Shown here piece by piece: positions 6,363 through 62,838 of a DNA stretch of 64,000 nt. This stretch comes from Curvularia clavata (lineage: Eukaryota). Both the position numbers and the translations under genes were made by a program. The notes below the pieces were generated by a model. That model made no database searches and was not told where the DNA came from. It saw only the letters and a program-made list of their open reading frames with translations. Position 1 is the stretch's first letter, and every line of letters starts with the position of its first letter. The DNA lies in the NCBI GenBank assembly GCA_023920165.1, contig CP089276.1, positions 2,542,001 to 2,606,000 of the forward strand. The letters run 5' to 3'.

Positions 6363-6726
6363 GAACAAAATAAGTAAGTCTTAGAGAAATGAGATAGAAA
6401 TCCAAATAGGCGCCGGCGGGACCGCATGACATTTCTTTGTGGTAGTGGGACATCAATGTTGTAGTATATTTGAAGATTATGCCGATGTATAACAGCTCGA
6501 ATCATGTCCCATTCTTTTACGTTGATTTTCTAGAAGTATTATAAAGGCTCGTTTAATGAATTAGAGGGGAATGCAGTACATGTGCAACAAAACTTCGAGA
6601 ACATACATGCATAGTTATATCTAAAACATGGAGCTATTACGAAATCGCAGTCTTCATGTTGAGACCAGCCTTCGAGAAGGCTCGCTCTAACAATTTTTAA
6701 TTAAACCAATCTCCACCTCTGCCTCA

Positions 6727-40069: not shown

Positions 40070-43000
40070 ATGGCCCCGGAGACAACCGGACGCCCACTGC
40101 TACCCCAAACCGCCCAGATGCAGAGCTTCACTTTTGCGCCGCCAACACTGGCGCCGCGCGAGAATCAGCGCAGTGAGTCCCTCGCATCGCCTCTGCCGCC
40201 CCGGGCGGACGAGAGAGATTGGCGGACTGGCTGACATGAACCCATCTAGACTATGTATTCGTAGACGAGCACAATAGACACAAACGCCTAAAAGGTGCGT
40301 TCCCATTGCCCCTGGCAGGCACGCAGGCACGCTGCCGTGCTTGTGTCCGCCCGGGCGTGACATGCACATGCTAACGTGATGCAGTAATGAGAGCATGCGA
40401 AGGCTGCCGCAGACGCAAAATCAAATGCGATGCGGCTACGACAAATGCATGGCCCTGCGCTGCATGCATCCGCTTAAAACTGAACTGCGTACCACCTACA
40501 GTCAACTACGACAAGGACTATAACGGCTCGCAGACCTTTGATCTCGAACCCAAGTCCATGGAGTACCCTACCGATGCCCCTTCCCAAGAGGACTACCAAC
40601 GCCATGCGTCCATGGCCCAAGCCGTGCCTCATGGCATGCCACTGTCCATGCCCGGCTCCGCCCAAGCCATGTACCAGCCTTCGCCCTATGTCGACCAACA
40701 GTCACAAGAACAATGCCATTACCAGCCCTTGTCGCAGCCTCAGGTCGTCCAGCAAACAATGGGCTATGCTGCCCAACAGCCCTACCCACAAGCATCGCCC
40801 GCACCACCAACTATACTGACTCCACCCGAATCGGAGCCCCATTGGCGAAGTGATTCTGCTTCCAGCCTGTCCGAGGCTTTGGGTGAACTCAAGATAGATC
40901 ACACCGCTGTTGGTAAGATGTACCGAGCTCCTGATCAAACGCAAACGAGACTAACCACGTGTGCAGCGCCCTACATCACAAACATGAAGAAGACGCTGGC
41001 TGAGACACCAGCGCAAGAGGAGTACGAGGTACAGTTACCGCAATCAGTCAGCCTCGATCACACCGTCCGCATACCGCCAGAAATGATGCCTTCCGACGAG
41101 CAGGCTCTGCATTATTTCGACTACTTCTTTGCCAATGTTCACCCCTATTGCCCTGTCATCAACAAGGCCTATTTCTATCAGCAATGGCACAGCGCACCAG
41201 ATTCGATTTCGCCCCTCATGCTTGAGTCCATCTTTGCCTGCTCTACTCTGATGCTTGGAGACGTGGAAGAAGGTAACAAGTGGCTAGCCCTCGCAACAAG
41301 TGAGTAATCTCCTGCGCTATGGTTTGATTCGCCATGCTAACAACATCCCTCTTAGGACATGAAGAAAGCTTCAGGGACGTGTCACGACTGAGTACCATGC
41401 AGGCTATGATACTTCTTCTCAAGGCGCGTGAAGCCTCACCCAAGCGCGGATATTTCTGGCGTTCCTGGATGGCTACCGTCAGTTTGGTGGCAATGGGAAA
41501 AGACCTGGAGTTGCATGAACATTACGACACTCATCAGATGGGAAAGTCATGTGGATCGACACAGCACGATTGTGTCGTCAAGACAAGAGTGTGGCAGATG
41601 TGTCTGATTTTTGAAGTCATGATTGGTGGTCCTCAAGGTATGTTACTCGACAGATAGCTTGACTTGGAGTCCTAACCACATTGCGTAGGTCGCTATGATT
41701 TTGGTGTTGATATTGACACTGTCGATTTTGAAATGCCCAGGCCAATGGCTGGACAGGATCCCAGTGAGCTCCAGATCGCGCGCCAATTTGTTCAGTTTAC
41801 CCGCATCGCCAAAAACGTATATCACTCTGCTCTTATATACGGGAAGCTCAGGAAGAAGACGCCGGATTGGGCATTGGATCCTTCTTTCGTGGGCCACAAC
41901 ACCGACTTTTCCATTTGGCTACGAGAATTGCCCGAGGATATGCAGCTTGTCTACCCCCAGGATGGCTCTGCTCCCTGGATTCCATCTCATCAGATTGCGA
42001 ATATGCACAGCTACCACTGCCTAGCCATCATCATGCATTTCCGGCCTCAGTTGCATGCTGTATCCGATTCGTACGATGGCATATGGAAGCAGCATATGCT
42101 GACTTGTTACTCGGCTGCCAAGAATCTATGCAAGCTGCAGGAGGCCATTCTCAAAACTTATGGTATGCCAGGTCTATTGTGCATGATGAGAGGCATTAGC
42201 TTCCATATCTACGCTGTGCTCACTTGCACTATGCTTCATCTTGTAAGTATTGACAGTACCATTACTGTCGTTTATTCACTAACAGTCATAGGTCGCGGTG
42301 ACCTGCCCTGACCCGGACATCAACCATGACGCTAGAGACTTTTTCGTGAGACACGTGCGCGTTCTGGAGACCATATCCCCGTCGTTTCCTATGCCCGAGA
42401 TGCAACAGCAAGTCAACAGCCTGCGTCAAGCGTTTTCAGCCGATTGCTCCAAGCCATTTGAGCTAAAGCCATCGTTTCCCTTTGGGAGTCCTCAAGTGGC
42501 TGCACAAACGAGTCCCTTAAGCCACCAAGGCTCTTATCGACCTCGTCATTCGAGCCATTCATCGCCCATGGAACAACCAGGTCAGGTCAACTACCATGCA
42601 CATCCTATCACTCCACCAATCTCGGCATCCGACCACGGATCAAAGGCTGACTCTCCCGTAGCCCAGTCTTTGGTCATGATGGCATCTGGTCAGCGTGGAC
42701 CCCAGTCCGCATCTAACCTGCAGATGCCGGATAATGTACAATGGAATCCACAACGCATATTTGAGTGAGTTGCACCAAAGTTTGCAACAGGCTTGTGTCA
42801 TGCTAACTTGATACAGTCAATGGAATGTTGCCTTTGGTACGCCCCCTCCTACTAGCGCCTCCTCCCAGTCTTCCCCGCCGCTAAGACCCACCCCTTCAGG
42901 AACCAATTACGACATGCGGCAGGCGCAAGATTCCATGCAGCCCGGCTACCAAATGGCGAATACTTCGCCTCAGTCCAGTCACGTTCATGGCGCACCCGGT

Positions 43001-43159
43001 CAAATGCCGCCATCATCAACTTACAGTAATGCTGCACCAGTCTATGTCACCCCGACTATGTGGCAGGAGGCCGTCGCCAGTTCTTTACCAGACGGTCTCA
43101 AGCGCAGATGGGATGGCAATTCCATGGCAGATCAGTCCATGTACAAGCGATCGCGTTGA
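40070..43159 (+). CDS. Conserved Zn2Cys6 transcription factor with fungal TF domain (multi-exon)
   Basis: NYVFVDEHNRHKRLK|VMRACEGCRRRKIKCDAATTNAWPCAACIRLKLNC, YFFANVHPYCPVI, WNPQRIFD and LKRRW. Confidence 0.9.
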
Positions 43160-45943
43160 GGGAGAGAATGCGTTTGAGAGAGAGAAAAAAAAGTGAAAGA
43201 CATGAGGTGTGTCTATGAACGGAAGAGATCATACCGCTCGCATCAGGATCATCACAGTCGTCCTATGGAACGAAGACACCCAGGGAAAGCGAACTACGCA
43301 TACGGCCAGGGGATAGGATTCTTCAGTGTGCCGATCAGGAGAAAAGGTGAAGAACATGCACATGTTGATGTCGGTAACGCGCTCGCTCCAAGCCGTTGTC
43401 CGGGTCAAAGAGTTTGTTCTTTCTGCCTCAAATCCTTTCCAGGTGGTCACATCATCTTTGCCACCAGCTGCTCTGATGTGTTGCAAAATAGCAGCCCAAG
43501 CACTATGCACCAAGACACAAGCGCAGATGTACGATATATTGACCTTGCACTATACGCAGGCACGACGGGATAATGAATAAGCAACGCTAGTGACAAATCC
43601 TAGCGCGATGCTGTTACTGTAATACTAGTATGGCTAGACAAAATATTCACAAGTTGTCGCTACATGTACGCCAACCTTCCTTGTTCGTCAAGCTACTGTG
43701 TGCAGTGCGATCTCTTGCATTGACCCATACAAAAGTGGGCATTCTGATAACCTCAACATTTCGACGCCTCACCTGCACGGGTACTTGGAGCTGGTAGGAT
43801 GATCTCACAAATGTCGCAGTCTGCGTAACTCCGTGGAGACTTGTACTTGGATCATTTTCGTGTCCCTGCGCTCACTCCCCACTCCAATCTATCCTTTCTG
43901 TCTCGCGTGCAAGAGGAGCGGTTCTAGCCACCGTGTTCTACAGATGCAGAAAACAATCAAGAACATTGCATACATATTTCCGTCCATTCTAGCCAGTATC
44001 ATCTGCAAGTGTTCTTTAGTTGAAGCCACAAAAGCCGAACGGTTCCTTCCATCAAATGCACCAATCAGAGATTTGCATGTGGGGGAGGGCTGGATTCATG
44101 GTGCGCCTTAAGTTGCCATGCCCTCTTTCCGCCCTGCCGTAAAGCAGCAGCCCAACTGATGTCGTCCTTGCCTCTGACGGGCCAATGCAATATTGGAAAT
44201 TCCGCAGACATTTTGCAATCGGACCGCTATTCGTTGTGAGGTACCACGACATCCTGGTCAGTACCGGCAATCAATTCGCGGGCTCATCAAACCGGGTTGT
44301 TCGGGTCCAGGCAATATCGACGACACCCACAAGGCTGGAAAAGATCCCGAGGCTCAACGGTCTAGTTCGATTTTCTGACGAAAACTTCAGCATGTGAAAT
44401 TGTGCTATGCGCGGGTAGACAGCGTCCCCCTTGCAACTTGGCCTCCGGGTCAACCAACACGGACCGCTTCGCAATGTGGAGAAGAAGCGCTAAGGAATCG
44501 AAAGGATGAATCCTGACAAGGTAGGGACGGGTGGTAGTCAACGTACGCTACTGCAGCATATCACGAATGTGGGCGTACGTGAGCATGTGGTATCAAACCT
44601 AATACAAGCAAAAGTTACATCGCTGATGCAGCTAGCCACACCGACTAATATCACACACCCCACTACTCTCAGAGTTATGCATTTCTATTACCCTTTCCCC
44701 ACGGGATTTGCCTTCTGTTGTGTCAGGGTGCCGTATGTATGTACCATCCGTAAGTGTTTCCAAGACGATAATCCCAGCAATTTGCTATCCTTCTTCTAAA
44801 CCCCCCTGACCCCTGGTTTCATCACTCCACAGTAGACGATGATTACCCACAATTGTGTACCCACCGATAGCATTACTCGCCTTGGCCGCGACAATGATGG
44901 ACCGGTCCTTGCCTCGTCGACTTGTGCAACGAGTCATGCCGTTAGCAAAGGGGAGTCGTTGCCGATCTGGCGATTGTGCGCCTGCTGGGGCTTGCCACGC
45001 ATCATGATCGACATTGAGAAACAAGATAGTAGTAGCAAGGGAAACTGGGGGGCAAGGAGAGGAGGCTGGAAAAATTGGCGAGACACAGTCGCTACGAAGA
45101 AGGGCCGGCTGGTATCTGGCTGTGTGGGGCTCTGTCTCTCCTCTCATCATCCATTGCTGACTTCCTCGCTGGCTCACCGCGAAGAATTTGACGACACGGC
45201 TCAGAAATCACAGGGTGTTTGATGTACTCTGTCAGCCAAACAAGAAGAAAAAGTTTCCGTGCCTAAACATCCGCGCAATGGATATGATCCCTTCATTTTG
45301 CGGCCATGTATTAAACTTTTGTGGCTCGTAATCCACAACCGGACATTGCATGGGCGTTCCTCAGGGCTTGATGTTTGTCGCATTCGTTCAATGTCGGCTC
45401 GTGTATGTCGGGCTACATAGCCGGCTTGTCACTATCCAAACAGTGCGAGGTATATCGAAGTTCTGAAATGCGCACTGAATTCAGGACTTCTGCACGGACT
45501 GTTCTGACACAAGTTACAGAAAGGTTTGTGGGACAAGTTGCCGAGTACCGACGACGACTGAGAACAGGCAAAGTCCAGGCCAGAGCGAAAAGTTTAGCGT
45601 TCCACTGACCGCGGATGACGACTCAGATAACTATCTCGTGAGAAGGTTACATCTCTAGAGTAAGAATGATGTCTGAGCTCTTTGTTCAAGCGTACATATC
45701 CAATATTGTCAATGTTCGGGACCGTAAAGGCTTGGCGAGAAAAAACTCAGGGGAATCGCGCGGTTGCGTTCCACTGGCGAACCTAGTGGGTCTGGCGAGC
45801 TATTCTGCTATCGAGGAACTATTCAAACTTCGCGCAGGGATAGAGCTGCTTGTATTCCTCTTGACATTGATGCAGGGACGCAGACTAACGGGGAAGTATG
45901 GAAGAACTGGGACCGGAATCCACCAATCCAGAAGCGATCAGAA

Positions 45944-47800
45944 CTAATCTTGACGCATGCCGATGATGGGATACTCTCTCTCGTTCCCGTATCCTATGTG
46001 TGGCGTTGTACCTCTCTCTTTCGGTAGTACCGAATTTAGGAATGCGCCTACAATAGCAGCAATGACAAAGGGTGTTTCGACAGCGAGATTGATACCTTGT
46101 TCAAATCCGACCAGATTCTGATTTGGCCCCTCGTAAGCCAGGACTTGTGCAAACCAGTCTGGTTGACAAATGTCCATGAACCCAATACCAAGTGTAACGG
46201 CGAGAATAAAGCGGTCGCGGCGCGTCCATGGAATGAGGGCGAGAACTCGTACACCCGCTACGGCGATGGTACTGTAGAGAAACACTTGCATGCCGCCGAG
46301 TACAGAGGGAGGCATAGAAGCAAAGACAGCTCCAAACTTGGCAATGATTCCCATGATAATCAGGAAGCCACTTGCTGCCCACCCTGCTCGACGAGATGCA
46401 CAGCCTGTGAGAACTATGACACCGTTGTTACCAGCCTGGCTGACCATCGGTGGGCCAGTAGCCAGCGCACTGAAGAAGCTGCCGATTCCATCGCACAAAA
46501 TGCCACCCTGAACCCGACTGTTGAACACTGTCCCCTCAATGTCTACGTCAGACAACTCAGCGGTAGCCAGAATATCCGGGATACAAGAAACTGCTTGGCA
46601 AGCAAACATAATAATCATGGGCAACACCAGTGCGCCATCGACAGAGAGCTTGAACGTATGTACCCAGAGGAAAGTGCCTCTAGGTGCTTGGTCAAGTTGC
46701 TCAGTCGACCAGTATCCAGTTGCGCCCGAGATGGCACAACCAACGGCAAGACCAATGACAACAGACGCTGAGCGCATGAGTGGTGCGCCTACCGCTTCCA
46801 CAAGCACAATAGTCGCAAAAACACTGAATCCCAGTCCAATCAGCTTGGGGTGTCCCCAAACCAATGGCCTAGGAGCAGAAATATCCGGACACAGAGCATA
46901 GAAGCCCTCGCCGCCATGGCAATTCGACGATCCGCCCCAGTTCTGCAACCCATTGCCGACAAGATACACGCCCACGAGCGTCAAGAGCGACCCCGTGATG
47001 AGCTTGGGGAAGACCCTATTCAGGATCTTGGGCGGAACAAATGCCATTGCGATCTGGATCCAAACACAACATAGCATGGTACCGAGACAGGCGCCCCAGG
47101 CATCTGGACACGGCGCGCGGGTGCCGTCTTCAGACACAGAACAAGTTCCCGACTTGTACCGTAGAGCAGCGTAGTTGAAGACGATGGGGAGGATGTCGAA
47201 AGTCGGACCGACGACACTCAAGAGTCCCGTGCCGATGAAGAAGGGTGTTTTCATAATGTGGAGTCGCGTGACTTGCAGGGCGGTAGCTATTCCGGTGGTG
47301 ATGAAGGCCGTGGAGACAAGGTAAGTAGTCATTTCTGCGTCGAAGTTGAAGGCTCCTGAGGCAATGGCGAGGGGTGGCGAGACGATGGAGCCGATCATGG
47401 TGAGGGCGTGTTGCAGACCGAGCAGAAGCGTTAGGAGTATGGGGACGCGGTCGTTGAGACCGAAGAACGGGGCTTTGTAATCTTTATATTTGCGATTCAA
47501 GGGCCAGATATTGGGGGTGATGAGGTAGATATAGTCCTTGTATCACTGTTAGTCTCGTGGGTACTAGGGGAGTGCTTGTTTGAAGGACGCATTTACGTAG
47601 TCTCCAATCCACCCATCTCTCGTCGTGAATGCATGCTTGATCTCTGCAACTGTGTCTTGCCATTTCGTGGTTACGGTGCCTACTTCATGGCTAGTTGGTG
47701 GTGAGTAGGAGCCTGTTTCTTTGGCATAGTGTGACTTTGACTTGACCTCGACATGGGGTTCCATGGCCATGGCAGATGTCGAAGCTGAAGTGTGGATCAT
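45944..47800 (-). CDS. NAT/NCS2 (UapA-like) nucleobase permease with a variant signature
   Basis: GWIGDY|DYIYL, PFFGLND, LGLQHAL, IGTGLLSVVG, SRVQGGILCDG and signature QAGNNGVIVLTG. Start uncertain (47800, 47770 or 47764). Confidence 0.9.
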
Positions 47801-48796
47801 GACCCCAAACAGCAGCGCGCGACGTTGATAAATACCATCGCGCCATATGCTTGTGTGACCTTATCGGTGCAATCATTGACTCGCAGGAATACACTCTCTT
47901 GCCACATGGGACGGAACATGCAGGGACCCTAGTTGAAGTGACAGATGCTATGTTAGTCAGTTTTTTATACCGAAAGCGTACGTGTAATATTGTATCGTGC
48001 GAAATGTACTTCAATAGTCTATGAAAGCCTTTTTTCGCCAGATTCTCTCACTTTCTTCAGTTGAACTGTTTGGTAACGAAGTTTTGATCAAGCTTTATTA
48101 TCTTGTTCTCTTACCTACAGAATGCTTCTCTGACTGGTAGATGGAGTAAAAAACGATGTGGTTCGTCTGATACTACCAGGAAAACACTACTAGCAAAACA
48201 AACCTACTGTGATTGGTAGTACACATGCAGGTATCGTTTGGAAAAAGCTGCAAGTCAGCTTATTGTTTACATTGAATACCCCTGTCTATGTTACTGCGGG
48301 CGCTAGGAGCCTTTCGCTCGGTAGCATATCTTCTCCATGATAGGCGTTCGTGGGTTTATGGATATCACGGCCGCCAGTTCAGCGGAAGATTGCTATCAGC
48401 TGATAGCATAACAATCAAAGAAAATAAAAGCATTCTAGGTTCGCGGTGATGAGCAGTCTACTAGAGGCAAGAAGATAAGGCACTGCTATCAGATTAGCGT
48501 CGGCCGCCCCCTGTCACTTTAGCCGAGCGTGCGGAGGTGGATAACTGCAGTCATTACACATTGCTGTACGTGTGGCACAACCGACGAGGGGCAAGCGACT
48601 AGCCAGGTGTGGGGATATTGGCCGAGTGGAGCTACAGAGGATTCCTGGTATGCAATATTTTCTTGCTGAAGATTTCGCCAGCCTTCGAAGACCTCAAATA
48701 CATCCTTTGTCTTGAAAAAGGCTGTTTCTAGCATTAGGTTGCATTGCAGGGACTTCGCCGCCTCGACTTCTATCCTCACCTTTGGCCAAAGCAACA

Positions 48797-50319
48797 ATGG
48801 ATTTAGCAACGATGGATCTAGATCTAGCAAGCGATGCTACATTGACTCTGCTGGTCCATGCAACAATAATCACTGTCAACAAGAGCCGAGAAATCATCTT
48901 GGATGGCGCACTTCTCATTGAAAATGACCGCATCAAACTGCTTGGAAAGACTGCAGACCTCGGGATGCTACCCGCAGGCAATCGAGATCTGGAAATTATT
49001 GATTGTTCGAACAAAATTGTTATTCCGGGTCTCATCAACACCCATGCCCATCTGGCCCAGTCGCTACTGCGAGGACTCGCCGAGGATCTCCCTCTTCACA
49101 ACTGGTTATGCGACGCTATCTGGCCTTTGGAGGCAAACTATGCTGAAGATGATGGTTTTGTTGCGTCGATGTTGACAATAGCCGAGATGCTCAAAACGGG
49201 AACGACTTGTTTCCTTGAAGCAATGCTCACGCATCGAAGCGGGCTTGAGAATGCAGTCCGAGCCGTAGAACAGAGTGGAATAAGAGCTTGCTTGGTGAGT
49301 TTGATAACGCCTGGAATTCGGATAGCCGCTAATGTAGACCGCAGGGTAAATTGATCAAGGCTGCTGAATCAAACCCAGACCTCAACATGAAGGATGCAAG
49401 AGATCGTGACGTCGACTCTATGTCTGTAGATGTTGCCCTTGCAGCACACAAGAAGTACCATAATACCTGCGAAAACCGTCTACACATATGGTTTGCCGCT
49501 GGAACACCTCGTGGATCTCCAATGGCCGCTCATGCCTCAATAGGCGAGACGGCGCAAAAAAACAACATTGGTCTTACCATGCATTGTGCGGAAGCGCCGA
49601 AGGATCTTTCCATCTATCGGCAATACTACCAGTGCAGCCCTTTTGAATTTTGTCGAGACGCTTCGCTGACAGGCTCCAAAAGTGTATTTGCACATTGTGT
49701 ACACCCGGATCCAGCAGCTGGGGACTTTGACATTCTCCGCGAAAGCAAGAGTACCGTTTCGCACAATCCGACAAGTAACCTTAAGCTTGGCTCGGGAGTG
49801 GCACCAATCCCGGATATGGTGGCAAATGGTGTGAATGTGACACTGGGGACAGACGGCGCGCCTTGCAACAACACATACGACATGTTCCGTGAGATGCATC
49901 TAGCATCGATACTCCATGGTGGAGTGAGGCAGAATGCCGGTGTGCTGAGTGCATATGATGTTCTAGAGTTTGCTACAATAAATGGAGCAAAAGCGCTTGG
50001 GTTGGAGGATGATATCGGCAGTTTGGAAGTGGGAAAGAAAGCGGACATTGTCATTGTGGAACCAAAAAGCCTTTCTAGCGCTCCTTGGTCTGCAACTCAG
50101 CAACATACCGGCGGCATCGATCCGGTCACAGTACTAGTCCATTCTTCGGGAGCGGATGTCGATATTGTAATGGTCGACGGCGATGTTCTTGTCCGTAACG
50201 GCAAGTTGGTGCGTTTTGACGAGGACATAATCAGACTGGGAGCGAGGCGTTCGATAATCGGCATACGACAAAGGAGCGGCATAGGCGCGAGAAACCACAT
50301 GTCATTAAAGTATACATAG
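48797..50319 (+). CDS. Amidohydrolase, AtzA/TrzA/MTA-SAH/guanine deaminase-like
   Basis: PGLINTHAH, MLKTGTT, MHCAE, FAHCVH, HNPTSNLKLGSG, LGTDG, GSLEVGKKAD. Intron ~49294-49345. Confidence 0.92.
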
Positions 50320-50321
50320 AC

Positions 50322-52591
50322 TCAGAACCGAAATGAAAGCAGATCATCAAAAAGACCGGGCCCTCCGAAAGCTATCTGTGATGGCAGCATGTTCGCCAAA
50401 GAGTCCCATGAAGCATCAGCCACGCTGTCGAGAGTCTGTACTGTTGGTGAAGGGGTAGGCACAGTCACTTGAAGGTTTTGCGATACGCCATCGATGAAGC
50501 TTTCGACATCCAGCGTCCGGGCCCGCTTCCTCGATGGAAAATCCTGATCGCTGGATTCGGTTCTTCGTGGTCGCTTTCTAGTGTCAATTCTTACACCTTC
50601 TCGGATCTCTTTCTGTAGCGCCGACAGTAGTTGAATACCACGCGAAGCAATCTTGCTATCTTTGAATCTTTGCAGGTAATCGATTGTATCTGCAACAAGC
50701 TTTGTATGTTCTCTAACCTCTTTCTCTTCCCCCGTACGATGTAGGGCGTCGAGACTGAGAATGATACCAGCTGCAATCGAGAAAGCCTGTTCAATCCACA
50801 GTATTGGTCCTTGTTCATCATTCGCAGATAGTGCTTCCTTCAAGATCGTTTTTGATGCTGCTATACAAGTGCGACGTGTGAATGTGAATGCTGAATTGGT
50901 GAAAGAAAGTCCCAAGAATTTTCGATGTATCATGATGATCTTATGCGAAGCGCAAATGGCTAATGATCTTCTGGCCCATGCTACATATTTTGGCCACTCG
51001 TTGCATACAGGCGCGTTTGTTGACAAGAAAGTAGGCATACAAGCTGTAGCCAGCTTGCGCATCTTCTCATCATAGTGTAATACCTTCTCATACTTTGTGA
51101 AGAGGGTATTACAGTCCGCCATATCATCCAGCAGCTGTGGCATAAGTGCTGCGATATCATAGCGATAATTGCAATAGCTCGCTTGGGTGGGTGTAGACAA
51201 AGGTTGGGGTATCATGTCGTTGTCATTACAATTCAGTAGTTTCGCGTGTTGATAGAAGCGAGGATTGAGCGAGTAAGATTCTGAAAAGGGAATCTGAAAC
51301 CAGTCTTGCGTACAGAGTTGGTTGAAAACTCTTCGTCCCATTTCTCGTTGGCGCAGCTGATCTCTTGAGAAAGTAGCATTCTCGTCCTCAACACGTAGAC
51401 GATGCAGACCCAAGCTCTGTGCAATGCGTCCAGCCGATGCGAGTAAAACTGATTGGCTGTTCGATTTTCCGAGAGTGTGAGCAGCAATTGTCAGCGTTGC
51501 GATTGCTTGCACGGAGTAAACAGTGTGATCTTCGATGTAACCAGCAATGTTGAGACATGTGACACTGGCTTCATACCATCTTTGTGATAATACTGTTCTT
51601 TCGGCTGGGGAAAACCCCCAAGATTGGTGTACCGATGGCGGTGCACATGTCATGCTTCCTGTGATAATAGCAAACAAAAGGCTCAACCATTGAAGGTTCA
51701 GACTTTCGTTACGTACGTTGCCGTCGTATTCTGTAAAAAACTGGTTCATATCTTGGTTGAATATCGTTGACGAGTAGGACCCATGATACCAGAGAAGGGA
51801 GCTGTTGTGATATTCAACAAGTTGTAAAAGATGATCCTTATTCGGAAGGAGAGCTTCCAGAACATCAATCTGTGCATCTCTGCTGCTTTCACTCATGGAG
51901 TAGGATGTTGTAGCTGGGTCATCATGCCTTATGCTGAATCGCCTCGGTCCACTATTATGCTCTGGTGATGACCCGTATTCAGCGTCCTTCTTTCGACCCC
52001 ATGCCAGGAATTCCAGAACAGTAGCTGTATCTGCAGCCTCAGGAGATGAGAGCACCTCATTGTCTTTTGCAGAAGAATCTACCGCCTCATAGTGTGTGGG
52101 ACTTGCTGGAGTGTCTTCAGGATGCAGTAAAGGCGCTTCGCCTGAAGGCGGATCGTGCCGTTCATTCAATTTAGACTCGAGCTCTTCCACACGTTCTAAA
52201 ATTGCTCGTACAAAGTCTTCGGATACGGTGGTTCCCCTTTGAGTTCCATGAGCAGCATGTGATACAGATTGTGAAGTCGAGGCGTCCTCTCTCGAACAAA
52301 AGCTCGCATAACCCCTAATTAATTACTTAGTATAGAGTATGGCAGAACACGTCCTACCAATTCACTTAAAGTTTAAGGTTAGCTGTTCGGACACAGCAAG
52401 CTTTGTGGATGTCTTTAACAAGCCGACTCTGCGGCGAGGCCGCATGTCCCAGGTGATAATAAAAAGAGAAGTGCTGACCTTCTGATACAGGTACTGCAGG
52501 GAACCTTCTTATCGCACTTGATCTTTCTCTTGTAACATTCTGTACAGGTCAAACGCGGCCGTTGTCCTTTGAAAAAGTTTCCGTCGTCCAT
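50322..52591 (-). CDS. Zn2Cys6 transcription factor with fungal TF domain
   Basis: Exon 1 RLTCTECYKRKIKCDKKVPCSTCIR, intron ~52478-52315, then LEFLAWGR, RIAQSLGLHRL and REMGRRVF. Confidence 0.88.
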
Positions 52592-52983
52592 TGATGTCGA
52601 TAGCTATGCTCGAAGGCAGTTCGGAATCTCGCAGACTTGATCGCTAGCCTCACGTAAGCTGCAACCGGCTCTCAATGAAGCTGCATGTCGGGATGATAGA
52701 CGGATGACAGGGGGCGGCCGAGATGTCGGGGGAGCCTTATCTACGGCCAATCTAAGCTGACATGCCCCGCCGCGAGCATTCAACCCACTGCCACTCTCTA
52801 ACGGCGGTAACGGCCGAGCCTAGCGGCGGCATCAACATCAGAGGGTTTTCTTTGACGCAGATCAAAACCGAGCTGGTACATGTCCAGATGAAGGTGATTA
52901 AACATAAGAGTGGTTGCATTCTGCTCGAGGTTTGACAAGACAACGCTTCGACATCGAACAAGTCAAATCTTACACACTTCATC

Positions 52984-54133
52984 ATGGCACCCACAAGATA
53001 CACCGACCGCCATGTGCCAACCATCTCACTTCGCAACTTCGACCTGCGGGTGGACGAGATCACTCGTGAGCTAGTTGATGCTGCAGAAAACCATGGCTTC
53101 TTTTGCATTGTGGATCACGAAATCAGCCGCAGTACTATTGATAGCATCTTCGAGCAGTCGTCTCGCTTTTTTGGTCAGCCTAATGATGTGAAGTCAAGAG
53201 TACCCTTCTCTCCTCAACACAACGCCGGGTGGGAGAAGAATGCGCAAATAAGGCCATCTACAGGAGCAGTTGATCGCAAAGAATCGTATCAAATGCAATT
53301 TGGAGAAGGCATGAATGGTGAGTTGCTCTTACTAGGCCGGTTTATGGCAGCACTGATTGATTAAAGGGCGCTGGCTGGATGATGAGACATTGCCAGGTTT
53401 TCAGGCCGAAGCCCTAGACTTCATGCACAAAGTACAATCAGTTAGCGAAAAACTCATGATATGTTTTGCGAGGGGTCTGGGCTTCGAAGATGACTATTTT
53501 GTCAAAGCCCATGATGTCCGCCGGCCAGAGTCCCAAACAGTCTGTCGTCTCCTGCATTATTTCGAAACACCCAAAGTGCAGAGTCAAAATGGAGAGGTGT
53601 ATCACAGGGCGGGTGCGCACACTGATTGGGACTTTTTGACTTTACTGTTCCAAAAGGCTGGACAGTCGGGTCTGGAGATCTGCCCGGGGAGAGAAGCTTC
53701 GACGGCTTTTGGTTCTGGCGACTTGTGGACAAAGGTCGAACCTGATGCTGAGAAGAATGCTATTGGTAGGTCGTCTTTTGCTTAGATATAGACTTCTGAC
53801 TCATACTACACAGTCTGCAATGTCGGCGACTTGCTCATGTCATGGTCTGACGACCGCTTCAAATCAACCTTGCATCGTGTCAAGGCACCGTGCGAGCCAG
53901 ACGATAACTACGGCGAGCGATACAGCATCGCTTTCTTCAACCAGCCATGCAAGGACGCGAAGATCCAAGGGCCTATGAAAAAGTACCCAATGGTAACGGG
54001 TGAGGAATTTACTAGGAATGCTATGAACCGGAACTACCAAGCAGTACAAGAGAAGCTGAGGAAGGAAAGGGAGTCGGCAGGTAAGGCGAGAGAGGTAGAC
54101 ACGGTAGTGACTTCAGTTAGCGTTGCTGTTTGA
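52984..54133 (+). CDS. 2-oxoglutarate/Fe(II) dioxygenase (IPNS / thymine-7-hydroxylase-like fold)
   Basis: AAENHGFF, RLLHY, GAHTDWD (HxD), CNVGDLL, STLHRV, RYSIAFF; two introns. Confidence 0.92.
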
Positions 54134-54448
54134 GTCGAGTTTCTGTAATATCGCGATTTTACTCAATGTGCTTATCATGGATATATGAAATGTATTTGTT
54201 CTGGTTTTCACGTGCTCACGCGTTTGTCTTGGCGCGACATACCTAAATCAGTGCACTTGCCACTTCGCTCAGCCACTTGGGCAAACTCAGTACATGAACA
54301 GCGTCGCGACCACACTCGGCCATGCTGAGGAGCCAGTCCCATGTTTAGAAATCCTCGAGAGAACCGCACATTGCCTGAGACGTCAAGGCTAGCCCCGTCG
54401 ACCGGTCGTCCCCCTTCGCCACCCCGCTCTTCATCAAGCGACGCAACC

Positions 54449-56995
54449 ATGGCCACCAAAACCGCAACGAAGAAAGCAGCGTCGAAGCCGAGTACGAGCA
54501 CTTCTCCGCCAAATCGCAAAACTGTTCAGACTACACTCACACCGGCCGATTTTGCGAAGAAGCCGTCTTCTGCGAATAATGGCAAGAAGCAGAAACCAGC
54601 CGGGACGCCGAATGGCAACATCATGGCATTCTTTAAAAAAGCTGAGGAGATCAACAGTCGCATATTCCTACAAGAAAGAGGTGCGAACCCAGCAATTGCG
54701 CTCGAAAATTACGAGGAAGATGTCGGCTGGAGTGATGAGAAGAGCAACGGCGTCGTAATCTCAGACAACGGCGAAGATCGCTACAACGAGAATTGCAGCA
54801 GTAACAAACGTCGGAAAGTCAGCGAAGAGCCAGCAGTACCGCCTCCGGCATGTTCACCACCTCCGCCAGCTGATGCTGAGAGCAAAGCTCTAGACACACT
54901 CACAGCACATATGTCTAAACAAGTGCAGAAGCCACGCAAGAAATCAGGACCCTTTGTAGATGATTCGGAATCCGAAGACGAAGGAGGAGAGATACCTGCT
55001 ACAAGTTCAGGTATGGCTATGCGAAAACAGAGTGAGATGTCGCCAATTACTAAAGAATCCGAGGATCCACCAATGATGGAAGCATCTAATCCAGAATCGA
55101 TACTAAGAGAAGAAGAGGAAAATTACGAAGATTACGAAGGGCTCGAGGATGACGATCTACTTGAAGGGGAAGAGTATGACGAAAGGCGTTGGATGAAAGA
55201 ACAACATAAACTAGAGATGGAAGAGGCGGGATTTGAGGGCGACCCAGACGAATTTGAGGCCCCTTTCTTATTTCCAGAGCAGGAAACATCAGAATTTCGA
55301 CAAGGAATGCAACAAAGCGATACCTCCAACATACCCTCATGCCCAATATGCGGTAGTAGTCTACCAGGTCTGCCAGAACAAGACGTATCTGTGCACGTCA
55401 ATGCATGCCTGGATGGCAAGCCACTTCCGCTTCCCGTACCAAAGACAGAACACCAAATCGAACGGGATGCTGGGGGTACTGCTAAGGCATCCATGCAGAG
55501 GGAAAGACCAGCCAAACCCGGCCAAGCAAACCCATTCCAGTTTGCAAAGCCGAGTACGCAGTCCGCCTCGGCGTTTTCAAAGCTCATGGCTGGGCATGCT
55601 GAGGACGCCGCATGGGCGACTGCGGCTGCCGAGAATAACAAGGCCCGAGGCAAGCCCGCCTATCAGCGGACTTGTCCATTCTACAAGATTATGCCAGGTT
55701 TTTTTATTGCTGTCGATGCTTTCCGCTATGGGGCTGTTAAAGGCCAGAACGCTTACTTCCTTAGTCACTTTCACAGCGATCATTATGTTGGGCTTACTGC
55801 ATCTTGGAAGCATGGTCCAATATATTGCAGCAAAGTCACAGGGAATCTGGTACGGCAACAACTTCGAGTCGATCCGAAATGGGTTGTAGATCTTGATTTT
55901 GAGGTCAAAACAGAAGTGCCGGGAACTGGAGGCGTGTTCGTGACGATGATATCAGCGAATCATTGTCCTGGTAGCTCCCTCTTCCTGTTTGAGAAAGAAA
56001 CTGGCAAAGGTGCAAACCCAAGGATGCAACGGGTCTTACACTGTGGAGACTTCCGCGCATGCCGAGCACACATCGAGCACCCCCTTCTCCGCCCCGATGT
56101 ACTGGACGCTGTAAGTGGGAAGACCAGGCAGCAGAAACTTGACGCTTGCTACCTTGATACTACCTACCTCAACCCAAAATATGCTTTCCCACCACAACAT
56201 CAGGTCATCCAGGCTTGCGCAGACATGTGCGTCAGTCTCAGCAAGGCTCGTGCTGATGAGTCAGATGGGTGGGAGAAAATGAAGCGGAAGCGCGCGGGGC
56301 AAGGCATGGTCAACTTTGTGCAAAAGGACTCTAATGCGGACGACCCATTACAGCCAAAGAGCCCTGAGCGAGGTCGCCTCCTTGTTGTTGTAGGCACATA
56401 CAGCATTGGAAAAGAACGCATATGCACCGGTATCGCAAAAGCCCTGAAAAGCAAAATATATGCTCCCACCAACAAACAGCGCATATGCAAGGCGCTCGAA
56501 GACCCCGAGCTGGATGCGCTGCTGACGACCGATCCTCGTGCTGCTCAGGTACATATGACCCCACTTTTTGAAATTCGGGCAGAGACGTTAGACGACTATT
56601 TGCGTGGTTACGCTGATACGTTTTCACGCGTCGTTGGTTTCAGACCCTCTGGCTGGAACTATCGTCCACCTCGAGGGCGCTTTACCGAATCGCCTCAGGT
56701 GCAGACTGTTCTATATTCGGATAACTGGAAGAGTACATTTTCCATGGAAGACCTCAAACCGCAAGCAGGCAGTGGGAGCAGGGCTAGTTGCTTTGGTGTA
56801 CCATATAGCGAGCATAGCAGCTTCAGGGAGCTAACAATGTTCTGTTGCGCGCTAAGGATCGACAAGATAATACCTACCGTCAATGTAGGTAGCGCGAGCA
56901 GCAGGGAGAAGATGAAAGTTTGGTGTGATAGGTGGGCTGCCGAGAAGAAGAAGAATGGCTTATTCAAATTAGGCAAGGGTGACGAAGGATGGTAG
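54449..56995 (+). CDS. PSO2: DNA interstrand cross-link repair nuclease Pso2/Snm1 (UBZ + MBL + beta-CASP)
   Basis: CPIC..HVNACLD, VDAFRY, FLSHFHSDHY, ANHCPG, HCGDFR, LDTTY, YSIGKE, PYSEHSS. The start may be ATG 54341. Confidence 0.94.
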   Translation: MATKTATKKAASKPSTSTSPPNRKTVQTTLTPADFAKKPSSANNGKKQKPAGTPNGNIMAFFKKAEEINSRIFLQERGANPAIALENYEEDVGWSDEKSNGVVISDNGEDRYNENCSSNKRRKVSEEPAVPPPACSPPPPADAESKALDTLTAHMSKQVQKPRKKSGPFVDDSESEDEGGEIPATSSGMAMRKQSEMSPITKESEDPPMMEASNPESILREEEENYEDYEGLEDDDLLEGEEYDERRWMKEQHKLEMEEAGFEGDPDEFEAPFLFPEQETSEFRQGMQQSDTSNIPSCPICGSSLPGLPEQDVSVHVNACLDGKPLPLPVPKTEHQIERDAGGTAKASMQRERPAKPGQANPFQFAKPSTQSASAFSKLMAGHAEDAAWATAAAENNKARGKPAYQRTCPFYKIMPGFFIAVDAFRYGAVKGQNAYFLSHFHSDHYVGLTASWKHGPIYCSKVTGNLVRQQLRVDPKWVVDLDFEVKTEVPGTGGVFVTMISANHCPGSSLFLFEKETGKGANPRMQRVLHCGDFRACRAHIEHPLLRPDVLDAVSGKTRQQKLDACYLDTTYLNPKYAFPPQHQVIQACADMCVSLSKARADESDGWEKMKRKRAGQGMVNFVQKDSNADDPLQPKSPERGRLLVVVGTYSIGKERICTGIAKALKSKIYAPTNKQRICKALEDPELDALLTTDPRAAQVHMTPLFEIRAETLDDYLRGYADTFSRVVGFRPSGWNYRPPRGRFTESPQVQTVLYSDNWKSTFSMEDLKPQAGSGSRASCFGVPYSEHSSFRELTMFCCALRIDKIIPTVNVGSASSREKMKVWCDRWAAEKKKNGLFKLGKGDEGW

Positions 56996-58209: not shown

Positions 58210-59494
58210 AGTCGAGATGTGCTGATGCGGATCCGAGAGAAAGGAAGAAGCAGATGTGTCGGGTTACTCAACAACCGGATACGATACGGAACTTCCGATC
58301 ACGACAATCACAACCCCAAGAAAGAGGACTGGAATCTCTTTTTTATGATGCCATCGCAAAGACTCTAACCGACTTCACGGATATGGTCCAACCTGGCCTA
58401 TCCCAACGGCAGACTCAGTTCTTGTACAGTCTATTACCATCGACTCTTAAGAAGACTTTAGACTGGGACTCGAACATTGCATGCACCTACACATGCGATA
58501 AATCATGTCAGCTTACGCGTTCTACAACCGGGAACTTCGAATAGCGCCCATGGGAATTATACTCATACATCGCCGACAGAAAGACCTTACTCAAGCGCAA
58601 TAGACCCAATACGAAGGAGATTATTACTCCGACCGCTTCACACGCCGCCGAACCTGACCACACGTTATGTTGCTGCGTATAAATTGGGACGGGTGTTCTC
58701 GAGGTACTAGGACGAATACTTGATAAATAATGGACAGCTTGCAGCAAGCTGGTAGTAAGCTTGCAAAGGAGTTTGGGAGAGAATACGGAAAGAAGCTGAG
58801 AGCTATTTATCAGCAGTGGGTAGACGAGTATGGGCTCGCGCCAAAGTGTTAATTTTGTAATTTTAATTCATATTCGCTCAATGATTTTTTCACGCATCAT
58901 GGCGATAGGGTTAAGTAAGCGTCTACGTCGACCTTGATTTGTCAATACCTGTGTTCTTTGCTTCCGCAACAGGAAAGGCACGCAACACATGGTGGTCACT
59001 AGTTTCGCCAAAATGAGATGCAAAGCTTCGTTATCGTCAGCCTTACCGCTGAACAATGGGCAACTGGTTACCACCAGAACTCCTTCTCCTTTTGCTCTCA
59101 CTCGGTATTTGAATTTTAACTAATATTGGTCTATCTGAATATCAACGCCTTTCTTGTGCTTCACAAACACATAGATTGTCTCTACAACGTGCGGGTCCCC
59201 CTGTCGCACTAGACCGAGACCTCGCTATATTCACATAAGCGTGATGCAATGTGCTGCAGCTTGAACAAGGACATTGGTTGGTCGCAACATGAAGGCAACA
59301 GCTGCGTCGTGCACTGCCCCATCGACCAAAAACCGAGCCTCATGGTTTCTATCGTCGACTCACCAATAAAAGGCTGCTTCTCTGACTCCTCAGGGCTCGA
59401 TACTGTTCCTAGCTTACTCGTTTTTTACCAATTCTGCATATGCTAGGTGTACCCACAACCTGACCAAGCATAAACCAAGCAACCTTATCTCATC

Positions 59495-61198
59495 ATGAGG
59501 CTTCTGAACACAAAATCTCTTGAGCTTAGCCGTCCCTATGTACCGAACGAGGTTCCAGACTATGCAATTCTTTCGCATCGGTGGAATACTGAAGAGGTCA
59601 CATTTGCAGATCTAAGCAACACACGCATTGTCCAACCTGAAAGCCAAGCTCGTACGAAGAATGGGTTTGCAAAGATACAGGGAGCTTGCAAACGGGCACT
59701 CAATGATGGATACGATTGGATCTGGATTGACAGTTGTTGCATCGACAAGTCCAGTTCGGCTGAATTACAAGAAGCCATCAATTCTATGTGGCGATACTAC
59801 GCGGAGTCAAATGTTTGCTATGTTTATCTAGCAGATGTTCCCGACTCAGAAGCTGGCTGGGGTTCAATATTTGCCAAAAGCGAATGGTTCACGCGTGGTT
59901 GGACGTTGCAAGAGTTAATCGCCCCAACATATGTCGAGTTCTTTGCGGAGAATTGGGTCGCAATCGGTACGAAGTTCGAACGATATCAACAGATTGCAGA
60001 AATTACCTCGATCGACTCAGATGTTCTCATCCGTGTTCACACTATTGAAAAATTCAGTGCTGCAGAAAGACTTTCATGGGCATCTCATCGAAACGTCACC
60101 AGGGAAGAGGACGAGGCATACTCGCTCCTAGGTCTATTTGACGTCAATATGCCACTTCTATATGGAGAGGGGCGGGAGAAAGCCTTTTTCAGGCTCCAAG
60201 AAGCTATCTACAATGCTACAGCTGACCACTCAATGTTTCTATTTCGCCATAGCCAACACAAACTTGCCCAACCTCTATTGGCTAGTTCGCCAGCAAGCTT
60301 CTGCGACAGATTGGGTTGCGATTCCTGTGCCTCGCGGGGAAGTCAGAATACATCCTCAAGTTTTCGATATCGCGATATCATTGCATCCGATCGGTGGATT
60401 ACACAAGCCCATGAACAAATCATGACTACTGTTACCACGACCCGCAATGAGGTCACCACTGTGCTTCCGCTGTTGGACTATCAACTTGTTTTCAACAAGC
60501 TAGAATTTTTCGACAGAGAGGCGCCGCGACCCATTACAACACATGTAGCAGTACTCAATCATACCCTGGAAAAGTACCCCCAAGGCGCTTTCTGTCTATT
60601 GTTAGAACGACACCCTTACCTGGATATATGCATCCGCAAAAACGACCTCCCGGCCGTTTTGCCCCATCTTGGGGACAGCGTGTCTCAAATTGAAAAGACG
60701 AAACTCCTCATATGTCCAATACTGAGTACAAAAAATCACGAAAACTGCATCCAAACCCTGTTTTCTGTTGACAGCGACTTGTTTCATGTAGAGGCATGGG
60801 ACGCTGAGGGTAGCAAAAATCGGTTATTCATATCAGGACAGCCAGAACAAAAATCAGACTTCAAAATTCTAGCAAGAAATTCTGATACAGCCGAAAACTC
60901 AGTCAAAGTATCTTGTCAAATCTGTGGTTCACAGAATCCAAACTTGTTGCTCACTATCCGAATAGTTCAAATGCATGGAATTTGGTCCATCAAGGAGATT
61001 TTTGAACGAAAAAGTGGGGGTAGGGAACGAAAACTACGCACGTTGTTTCTTTCCTCTACTCCTACCGATCGTTGTGCAATTGAGTTTCCGAGTGGAAAGA
61101 TGCTGTCAGTGAAGCTTCGACGCTTACCTAGCTCTGCTCGTACTCCTCAAGGCTTTTTCGTAAAAAACCGTTATCGAATCTCAGTAGACAGTCGATAG
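59495..61198 (+). CDS. HET-domain (heterokaryon incompatibility) protein
   Basis: MRLLNT, YAILSHRW, WIWIDSCCIDKSSSAELQEAINSM, WFTRGWTLQELIAP, AYSLLGLFDVNMPLLYGEG. Confidence 0.92.
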   Translation: MRLLNTKSLELSRPYVPNEVPDYAILSHRWNTEEVTFADLSNTRIVQPESQARTKNGFAKIQGACKRALNDGYDWIWIDSCCIDKSSSAELQEAINSMWRYYAESNVCYVYLADVPDSEAGWGSIFAKSEWFTRGWTLQELIAPTYVEFFAENWVAIGTKFERYQQIAEITSIDSDVLIRVHTIEKFSAAERLSWASHRNVTREEDEAYSLLGLFDVNMPLLYGEGREKAFFRLQEAIYNATADHSMFLFRHSQHKLAQPLLASSPASFCDRLGCDSCASRGSQNTSSSFRYRDIIASDRWITQAHEQIMTTVTTTRNEVTTVLPLLDYQLVFNKLEFFDREAPRPITTHVAVLNHTLEKYPQGAFCLLLERHPYLDICIRKNDLPAVLPHLGDSVSQIEKTKLLICPILSTKNHENCIQTLFSVDSDLFHVEAWDAEGSKNRLFISGQPEQKSDFKILARNSDTAENSVKVSCQICGSQNPNLLLTIRIVQMHGIWSIKEIFERKSGGRERKLRTLFLSSTPTDRCAIEFPSGKMLSVKLRRLPSSARTPQGFFVKNRYRISVDSR

Positions 61199-62838
61199 AT
61201 AGTTCTTTCATAATCGTATGTTGTTTCATACAAGAGATCCACCAAATAGAAAAATGAAATCAAGTTATCGGCTTTAGTTAAACGTTTGGCCTTCTTTTTC
61301 AGAGTAAGAATCGAACCGGCAACTGTATCCAAAGCTTGTGGAGAAATTTTGATCTAGTGATATAATTGAAATAGAACGTATTATGCGGCAGTCAATACGT
61401 CGTGTATCAAATACTCCACCTTGAACTTCCTCCTACTCGTTTCTCTTAAAGTAGTGTCATAGAGCCACTGTGAGGAAGCTCCACGCTTCCTAAGTAGCTA
61501 GCTTTGATCACAACAAGGTACTACCTTCTACCAACCTAGACTTGACCCACAAATTCCCGAAAAAGGCGGTATTTTTAGCGACTTTAGATGAGAATCTACT
61601 GAATCCCGTTAAGGTGAGGGTAGTAAGGTCTTTGCTCAGGCAATAATGAATATCTGCAAAGTTTGAATCTCAAAGCGTGCGAAAACAGAAGCATATTATG
61701 CACAACGCTGTATTGTGAGGAGAGGATACTACGCATATACTAGAAGCGTTTACTTTGCACTCATTTTCACACGCTGTCGAAACTGCACCTACCTATAATA
61801 ACCTGGAGGTCAAAATGAGGTTCACCGACCGTTCTATGCGTGTTGTAGAGCGTGAAGGTTGCTTCTGCGCTTAGTCTGATGTATCAATGATAGGGTCATG
61901 AGCAATAGGATCATGGGTCCAATTCTAACCATAGGCAGAAGAAATTAACAGGTTATCATATTCAAGCCGTTGAAACGTGTTTCCGTGACGTAGAATGTTC
62001 CAGTCCAACCTTAAAGTCTAGCTTGAGTGAGAGAAAAACGAAAAGACGACGTAAGACCTTTCACAGGAAAACGTGGCACAAATGCGCTACTTGAGAAGAT
62101 TTTGGTGCAACAAGACCTGTTTGATTCATGAGGGTAAGTCTGGAGAATTTTATTGCTATTCCGCAATTGGACCGCGGTGCTAGTATTTCCTGAAACAGAG
62201 ATCCAGGTCGGCCGAGCGAATTCTTCTAGATCGATATGGATGCGCTGCTTTGCACTGTACCCACGATCACAATGCCGCAGCGGCAAGTTAACGCCTCAGC
62301 CGATCTGTTATGACGAAATGACAACGGCGACTAAACAAGGATTGCCTGGGCATCTTTGCTTGTTACGGGTCGCCACGTTGTCTCGGCAGATCGAATCGTT
62401 TCAGGAACAAGGGATGCGACATGTTGACGTCTTCACCGCGAGTCTTGTCCGAGATTTTTGCAGTCTTGTCGCCCTAAATGGAGATGCTTTTCGGACCTTT
62501 TATGACGGGGTTAACGGTGATTGTGGTGCACGCCCCGTTTTGAGGCTCAAGAACGTGGTTAAAGTGGGTCTGATGTCAACGGCGTAGATCGGCGAAAGGA
62601 CAAAACACCAGGATAAGCCATACCTCCATGTCTCCAACCTCATACCGAGTTTCGATGTATTACAAATGCTAGGAAAATTTCTAGAAGGTTGGAAAGAGTG
62701 TAAATATAAAACTGTAGCGGTATACTGCGTGTAGTTACCATTCTATCCATCAAAACTCATCTCACATCAACGCAACTACTCTTTCCAATCTCTTATTTTC
62801 GTGCAATTCCCTTTCAGTACCAGAGCAAGCGAAAAGAC

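Follow-up and report, generated by a model that had tools for sequence, protein, structure and literature searches.

A conserved permease–amidohydrolase pair with a thymine-7-hydroxylase-like dioxygenase and a Zn2Cys6 factor in Curvularia clavata: a candidate module for nucleobase-like N-heterocycles in filamentous ascomycetes

In Aspergillus nidulans, uric acid and xanthine are taken up by the H+ symporters UapA and UapC, and the UaY-controlled purine regulon and the nicotinate (hxn) clusters follow a common logic that combines a transporter, enzymes for hydrolysis and oxidation, and a regulator specific to the pathway. In the hxn case the genes lie physically together, and one of them encodes a 2-oxoglutarate (2OG) dioxygenase. 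A unit of the same logic, but with protein families that differ throughout, occupies positions 45944 to 54133 of a 64,000-nucleotide stretch of Curvularia clavata DNA (assembly GCA_023920165.1, contig CP089276.1, positions 2,542,001 to 2,606,000 of the forward strand), the whole of which is called the window here. The unit encodes a non-canonical UapA-like NAT/NCS2 permease (PER), a Zn-dependent amidohydrolase of the deaminase type (AMD), a Zn2Cys6 transcription factor (TF), and a Fe(II)/2OG dioxygenase (DIO) resembling thymine-7-hydroxylase (T7H). On balance, we favor the view that these genes form a conserved, probably co-regulated module for the uptake and conversion of a nucleobase-like N-heterocycle in filamentous ascomycetes. 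Literature searches, whose reach stopped short of most subscription journals, turned up no publication on this gene combination, in agreement with a previous sequence-only reading of the window that had recognized no characterized pathway of this composition.

Six-frame reading together with Pfam searches yielded four intact spliced genes between the stop codons of PER (45944) and DIO (54133), with splice sites chosen by eye from GT..AG boundaries and the reading frame. The layout consists of two head-to-head pairs. PER (45944..47770, minus strand, 588 amino acids) and AMD (48797..50319, plus strand, 490 amino acids) diverge from a promoter region that, by the gene models, measures 1026 bp between start codons (47771..48796), and TF (50322..52591, minus strand, 701 amino acids) and DIO (52984..54133, plus strand, 350 amino acids) diverge from a promoter and 5′ untranslated region of 392 bp (52592..52983) that RNA contigs enter from both sides. 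AMD and TF are convergent, their stop codons lying 2 bp apart. Pfam assigned PER to Xan_ur_permease (PF00860, 4.9e-48, 164 bits vs a 27-bit cut-off), AMD to Amidohydro_1 (PF01979, 7.5e-15 for exon 1 and 1.2e-44 for exon 2), TF to Zn_clus (3e-07), and DIO to DIOX_N (7.2e-17) and 2OG-FeII_Oxy (2.3e-08). The gene positions, protein identities, and two divergent pairs proposed from the letters alone are thereby borne out, with the outer coordinates exact. The best database matches of AMD and PER come from Pleosporales (Exserohilum, 85%; Alternaria, Stemphylium, and Bipolaris, 81-91%).

The linkage of these genes was followed in metagenome contigs scanned with an alignment of amidohydrolase homologs, which gave 80 loci. 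Thirty-one are of fungal type: they share the exon structure of AMD, are 49-82% identical to its exon 2, and reduce to 25 groups at 95% nucleotide identity; the other 49 are prokaryote-like (37-46% identity). Neighbors were identified by local tblastn with the window exons, PER being scorable where at least 1500 bp lies upstream of AMD, and DIO and TF where at least 3500 bp lies downstream. PER is upstream and divergent of AMD in 17/17 scorable loci (14 groups; 55-82% AMD identity) and also in 2 loci with slightly less than 1500 bp; the 12 of the 31 loci that are unscorable for PER offer less than 900 bp, shorter than most of the spacers, which span 628-1748 bp. A DIO ortholog stands next to AMD in 9 of 12 scorable loci (8 of 10 groups), and a TF homolog is present in 8 scorable loci, corresponding to 7 of the 10 groups. 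The internal order varies: in L021-L023 DIO comes directly after AMD, and L024 and L025 carry an en bloc inversion of the DIO-TF pair, which is still head-to-head. Genes flanking the unit are unrelated between lineages and include a P-type ATPase, BRO1, TAFII55, SRP9, and a P450, among others. Among named Leotiomycete and Sordariomycete genomes, with accession numbers as a proxy for adjacency, the GenBank accessions of DIO, AMD, and PER are consecutive in Halenospora varia (...70, 71, 72), and for Xylariomycetidae sp. FL0641, Thozetella sp., and Niveomyces insectorum the numbers either follow one another or are one apart; in several further named species the cluster genes lie on contigs of equal extent. 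Co-localization in other genomes, by which the sequence-only reading had proposed that its module be judged, is what these loci display. PER and AMD form a fixed pair in Dothideomycetes, Leotiomycetes, and Sordariomycetes at least, with DIO as a frequent third member and TF as a lineage-restricted fourth.

Conserved synteny is joined by a shared promoter element, and together they place the four-gene linkage beyond chance. Each divergent promoter holds one exact copy of the 17-mer TCGGCCGCCCCCTGTCA, a candidate regulator site that the sequence-only reading had not noticed, and the 64 kb contain no others: one copy lies at 48500..48516 on the plus strand, the other, inverted, at 52705..52721 on the minus strand within the TF/DIO spacer. 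In 9 related loci the 17-mer recurs with at most 3 mismatches at the orthologous position of the PER/AMD spacer, and the variant TCGGCCGCACCCTGTTC occupies the orthologous TF/DIO spot in 5; matches with 4 mismatches are uninformative because the prokaryote-like control loci contain 17 of them in 531,780 bp. An extra copy of the core TCGGCCG lies at 52811-52817 in the TF/DIO spacer, and this core is found 24 times in 21,542 bp of cluster spacers vs 32 times in 240,846 bp elsewhere, which is 8 times denser, counted over loci that are partly non-independent. It is also present in both spacers of L009 and in both of L021, a more distant locus.

The CGG/CCG content of the 17-mer would fit a Zn2Cys6 site, and its position suggests that TF may regulate its own promoter. 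TF is encoded by exons 52591-52479 and 52314-50322, and its zinc cluster spans the intron, so that the cysteine pattern CX2CX6CX5CX2CX8C is formed after splicing, in accord with the N-terminal consensus CX2CX6CX5-12CX2CX6-8C of such factors; the 666-aa exon-2 frame matched no Pfam family at E ≤ 0.01, including the Fungal_trans middle homology domain. The UaY-type site TCGG-N6-CCGA has 0 matches in the whole 64 kb window, extending the absence of a UaY/Ppr1 site that had been reported for the two promoters, and this separates the unit from the UaY and hxn systems and PER from UapA and UapC, from which it also differs in being paired with a deaminase. The k-mers CCAATCCA and GTGAAGTA, the only ones to exceed the shuffle maximum in the PER-AMD spacers of 17 loci, were rejected as regulatory elements, since they are coding words inside PER exon 1 that the spacer definition had counted in. 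As separate observations, both promoters of two related loci, L025 and L026 (TF 40-43% identical to the window TF), share words containing TGTACGAC and not TCGGCCG, and the strain of run X1, one of four public RNA data sets, has a 10-nt insertion at 52727, a few bases from the second 17-mer copy.

UapA provides the reference against which PER can be read. In the available excerpts of PMC4837479, UapA recognizes xanthine through Gln408 (N1-H and C2=O) and Glu356 (N7-H), with Phe155 and Phe406 packing on the ring. PER (exons 47770-47597 and 47536-45944) matches the UapA structure 5i6c with an E value of 4.9e-147 and is homologous across the 14-transmembrane-segment (TMS) body, with identity estimated by eye at about half of the aligned positions; its Alternaria ortholog scores 314.5 bits against TIGR00801, vs a 291.8-bit cut-off. 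In the TMS8 motif AVSCIPD (46574..46594, minus strand), the E356-x-x-G-D360 of UapA is replaced by S-x-x-P-D, and in the TMS10 NAT signature QAGNNGVIVLTG (46403..46438, minus strand), F406 is replaced by Gln, Q408 by Gly, and R417 by Gly. The substitutions are therefore E356S, G359P, F406Q, Q408G, and R417G, in a protein that keeps the TMS1 Gln-His, F155, D360, N409, N410, G411, and T416 of UapA, along with the rest of the TMS10 signature (N-N-G-x4-T-G).

The same pocket is found throughout the PER clade, defined here as the query plus its 120 best database relatives (71-91% identical), which spans Dothideomycetes, Leotiomycetes, Sordariomycetes, and Eurotiomycetes. Ser at the E356 position and Gln at the F406 position are each present in 121/121 members, and at the Q408 position 119 members have Gly and 2 have Ala; the TMS1 Gln-His (LQHALTM in PER) is retained by 117, the other 4 being truncated at the site. 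PER and all 121 clade members are thus without three of the four side chains with which UapA contacts xanthine, and E356S, Q408G, and F406Q together imply that the readers of N7-H, N1-H, and C2=O and one stacking ring are gone. Fixation of these changes in 121/121 sequences at 71-91% identity points to purifying selection, not decay. Canonical NATs are described in the available part of PMC5972032 by the TMS1 Gln-His and a TMS10 signature of [Q/E/P]-N-x-G-x4-T-[G/R/K]; PER has the former, shows Ser for Glu in TMS8 (S-C-I-P-D), and departs from the latter at its first position, so that by motif it classes as a non-canonical NAT. What the sequence-only reading had called a variant NAT can accordingly be specified as E356S, Q408G, and F406Q relative to UapA.

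A non-canonical fungal NAT group, termed UapD-like, has been described without an assigned function and detected in Aspergillus section Nigri (excerpts of PMC5972032 and PMC5307856). The PER clade probably corresponds to this group, matched by description, because it includes the section Nigri species A. tubingensis, A. heteromorphus, and A. ellipticus (72-73% identity) and shares with UapD-like proteins the missing motifs for nucleobase or ascorbate transport. It extends far beyond section Nigri, unlike the group as described, and its constant pairing with an amidohydrolase finds no mention in the excerpts of these two sources.

AMD (exons 48797-49294 and 49345-50319) carries, as judged by motif, the complete mononuclear-metal deaminase set of HxH (49040-49054), HxxE (49579-49593), His (49690-49704), and Asp (49846-49860), all on the plus strand. 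Across 18 homologs the catalytic residues are invariant, and the corresponding words THAHL, MHCAE, AHCVH, and GTDG vary little or not at all. A PDB search run with the Alternaria ortholog returned as best matches the two Pseudomonas aeruginosa entries 4dyk/4gbd (4e-54), AtzA (1.2e-52), and the 5′-methylthioadenosine/S-adenosylhomocysteine (MTA/SAH) deaminase 4f0r (6e-48), followed in order by 8-oxoguanine deaminase, Tm0936, guanine deaminases, and TrzN. The best NCBIfam model was 5′-deoxyadenosine deaminase (360 bits vs a 522-bit cut-off), followed by N-ethylammeline chlorohydrolase of the TrzA type (326 vs 609 bits). Of the earlier designation as an AtzA/guanine-deaminase-like enzyme, the deaminase-type amidohydrolase and the likeness to AtzA stand, and guanine deaminase proves less close than Tm0936, MtaD, DadD, or TrzA. 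With Tm0936, MtaD, DadD, AtzA, and TrzA, which we take to be members of cog0402, AMD shares the fold family and the metal and catalytic motifs, whereas the fungal AMD clade is set apart by its 37-46% identity to the prokaryotic relatives retrieved and by being encoded beside a nucleobase-type permease. The nearest prokaryotic relatives retrieved (40-46% identity) lie between an adenine deaminase and a xanthine-dehydrogenase-like gene, a purine-base context. The operon-like row in L030 and L035 (and, by layout, L048 and L070) consists of an FAD oxidase, an adenine deaminase, the AMD homolog, and a xanthine-dehydrogenase-like molybdenum subunit; in L038, the neighbors of the AMD homolog are further amidohydrolases together with genes for a carbamate-kinase-like protein and a phosphoribosyltransferase.

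These relationships bear directly on the main alternative, a route for nucleoside by-products or antimetabolites, in which AMD would be an MtaD/DadD-type deaminase for 5′-modified adenosines (MTA, 5′-deoxyadenosine, adenosine, or deoxy-adenosine analogues from competitors), DIO would hydroxylate the sugar or the deaminated product, and PER would move the released base or an unusually large substrate that its widened pocket would admit. The MTA/SAH-type enzymes 4dyk/4gbd and 4f0r, the top NCBIfam model, and the loss of bulky side chains from the PER pocket (Q408G, E356S) all lean this way, as does the segment after HxH, where the GLAEDLPLHNWLCDAIWPLE stretch of AMD closely matches nucleoside deaminases and the Trp and Glu of 'W...IWPxE' are kept. 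Yet the score of 360 bits lies below the 522-bit DadD cut-off with the non-nucleoside TrzA-type model close behind, AtzA matches at 1.2e-52, the prokaryotic relatives sit in purine-base contexts, and DIO retains the free-base sandwich of T7H. We also know of no NAT that acts as a nucleoside carrier. Taken together, we regard this route as unlikely.

DIO (exons 52984-53317, 53367-53765, and 53814-54133) was searched by way of an intronless ortholog from L021 (P0128), whose three exon-equivalent parts are 59-73% identical to the window DIO. The best solved relative by sequence is Neurospora T7H (3.1e-27), and an AlphaFold model (pLDDT 77, pTM 0.83) also returned T7H as best fold match (E 1.3e-23, TM 0.70, 30% identity), in keeping with the thymine-hydroxylase type first proposed. 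In the excerpts available of PMC4787775, T7H binds Fe through H214, D216, and H271, 2OG through R190, Y194, R286, and S288, and its substrate through F292, Y217, and N87. DIO keeps the Fe triad, all four 2OG ligands, N87, and the stacking F292; Y217 is replaced by Trp, which occurs in some T7Hs (same excerpts), and E122 and N294 are both Gln. The mapped residues, including this Trp and both Gln, are invariant in 29 orthologs, and the motifs lie on the plus strand at 53615-53632 (HxD), 53867-53881 (distal His), and 53915-53938 (RxS...F). From these residues, DIO looks built to clamp a free planar oxo-heterocycle. The long C-terminal helix of T7H is also present in the model, but an identity of only 30% marks DIO as a distinct orthologous group from the T7H of these fungi, and, unlike in T7H thymidine salvage, no iso-orotate decarboxylase lies near DIO in the window or the long related loci. 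In L026, a paralogous DIOX_N/2OG gene of 25-32% identity (11166-12383, minus strand) takes the place of DIO with a TF homolog next to it, possibly a non-orthologous replacement. A PNPOx_N-like gene (FMN-binding split-barrel; 6516-7472, plus strand) follows AMD in place of DIO in L018.

Close structural relatives of DIO include the fungal natural-product oxygenases SpoC and TraH, and a tailoring-type 2OG oxygenase in a compact unit with its own Zn2Cys6 factor could belong to a small biosynthetic or self-protection cluster whose enzymes tailor a purine- or pyrimidine-derived secondary metabolite that PER exports. We consider this very unlikely: no backbone enzyme adjoins the genes in the window or in any long locus, identity between classes is 55-90% for the three core proteins, as is typical of primary or nutritional metabolism, and characterized NATs are importers (available part of PMC5972032).

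The AtzA match and the N-ethylammeline chlorohydrolase models, second and fourth among the best NCBIfam matches of AMD, could alternatively suggest that AMD is an AtzA/TrzA-type hydrolase with which a xenobiotic amino-heterocycle, s-triazine-like or otherwise, is detoxified or used. PER and DIO are of the nucleobase type, however, and a module so strongly conserved over several ascomycete classes must predate synthetic triazines, which makes this explanation highly improbable. Equally little credence is due to adjacency without common function, in which PER would be a decaying or inactive UapA paralogue and AMD and DIO unrelated housekeeping enzymes in an inherited neighborhood: although PMC5307856 states that no data back UapD-type proteins as nucleobase transporters, the PER-AMD pair is kept in 14/14 scorable groups while every flank changes, the unit has been rearranged and not just inherited (L021-L023, L024/L025), the pocket substitutions are fixed, and the 17-mer is common to both promoters.

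For the uptake-and-conversion module that we favor, a pathway can be proposed in which each step is drawn from family chemistry. PER, as a descendant of a permease for uric acid and xanthine, but with a rebuilt pocket (E356S, Q408G, and F406Q, with F155 kept), would import the compound together with protons. In the cytosol, AMD as a mononuclear-metal enzyme would hydrolyze an exocyclic amino or N-alkylamino group to give the oxo form and ammonia or an amine. DIO would bind the resulting planar oxo-heterocycle between two aromatic residues and, acting on a methyl group or a ring C-H, either hydroxylate or oxidatively demethylate it, and the product would feed ordinary purine or pyrimidine catabolism or salvage. 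In Pleosporales, TF would drive both divergent promoters, its own included, through the TCGGCCG-containing element. The interpretation as uptake, deamination, and oxidation that had been drawn from the letters is supported as far as computation reaches.

Candidate substrates include methylated, N6-substituted, or oxidized aminopurines, pterins, and 5-methylcytosine-like pyrimidines, and our guess, tentatively held, is the first of these classes, the modified aminopurines, as free bases. In a rather doubtful specific version, decaying nucleic acids or plants would release such a base (for example 7-methylguanine or a different N-methylated purine, or else an adenine substituted at N6, for instance a cytokinin base), the UapD-like clade would import it, and the cluster enzymes would deaminate or dealkylaminate it and then, by Fe/2OG chemistry, oxidatively demethylate or hydroxylate it to an ordinary purine. 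To our knowledge, a free-base salvage or catabolic route of this kind has been described in no organism.

Several points weigh against this reading. The nucleoside-deaminase-like segment of AMD is the main one against a free-base substrate: the nearest characterized relatives (MTA/SAH and 5′-deoxyadenosine deaminases) act on nucleosides, and the retained Trp and Glu of 'W...IWPxE' presumably correspond to ribose contacts in Tm0936. AMD also scores under the cut-off of every NCBIfam equivalog compared (MtaD, DadD, TrzA, 8-oxoguanine deaminase, and guanine deaminase; beyond the two scores given above, 287/540, 228/532, and 176/375 bits). On the side of the permease, A. brasiliensis UapD is reportedly retained in the endoplasmic reticulum when expressed in A. 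nidulans, and a study of UapD-type proteins reportedly identified no function for them. L014 and L015 are without DIO beside AMD, and TF is missing from 3 of the 10 scorable groups, so that the dedicated regulator envisaged by the sequence-only reading holds for the other seven groups and not for these. The promoter motif is confined to Pleosporales-like loci, L007, L021, and L023, the remaining distant loci being without it. The loci from metagenomes come without taxonomy, and in the named species adjacency is indicated only by proxy, through consecutive accession numbers. The transcript data are assembled contigs of four public runs, whose depths are not usable to rank the genes and are unable to show co-expression. 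Finally, PMC5307856 states that UapD members have no data behind them as nucleobase transporters.

Within these limits, the transcripts agree with the gene models. The spliced RNA contigs of run X1 include all four genes. The AMD intron (49295-49344) is removed exactly as modeled (joint 49293/49344), the 164-nt TF intron (52315-52478) is removed as modeled in contigs of two runs, and both DIO introns (53318-53366 and 53766-53813) are likewise removed, the second joint being read through a synonymous difference in the sequenced strains. The 60-nt PER intron (47596-47537) is placed by homology only, its sole support being that 39 of the 58 residues of exon 1 match the N-terminus of a 588-aa Stemphylium protein; no contig bridges this intron and exon 1, the PER RNA contig covers 44833-47536, and that of run X1 ends at 47536, which is neutral on this intron. 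The AMD contig starts at 48594.

RNA contigs also extend about 1.1 kb past the PER stop codon (44833-45944), a region with no conserved open reading frame (ORF), and a root metatranscriptome run covers 44976-45651 beyond the same stop; this transcription may represent a long 3′ untranslated region or an unannotated transcript. The 2 bp between the AMD and TF stop codons compare with 8-12 bp in the related loci L001 and L004, and stop codons so close mean that the AMD and TF 3′ ends must overlap. One unstranded RNA contig spans AMD and TF, and antisense interplay between them is possible.

Neighboring genes were also considered. A second Zn2Cys6 gene (40375-43573, plus strand) was rejected as a member because its synteny is limited to the closest loci (L012 and L013), and a PSO2/SNM1-type cross-link repair gene with a DRMBL domain (54341-56995, plus strand) was rejected on the same ground; the latter is present but inverted in L006 and L013. 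Elsewhere in the window are an intact-looking 570-aa ORF with DDE_1 and Tc5 HTH domains, resembling a pogo/Tc5-like transposase (25852-27564, minus strand), and, both on the plus strand, genes for a HET-domain protein (59474-61198) and a zinc-type alcohol dehydrogenase (62710-63894); L014 likewise has a HET gene at its edge. An ESM Atlas search returned generic family names only.

Nucleobase uptake and catabolism in filamentous fungi are among the best-studied eukaryotic systems of their kind, and the UapD-like NATs are still without an assigned function. The strict pairing of PER with a deaminase, usually accompanied by a T7H-like oxygenase, makes the substrate of AMD the prime candidate for the substrate of PER. 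If the proposed module is real, it would constitute a new pathway for nitrogen scavenging or salvage that occurs in Dothideomycetes, Leotiomycetes, and Sordariomycetes; the permease clade extends to Eurotiomycetes as well, and many of these fungi are plant-associated. It would also offer a natural experiment in which the pocket of an elevator-type transporter has been rebuilt for a new ligand.

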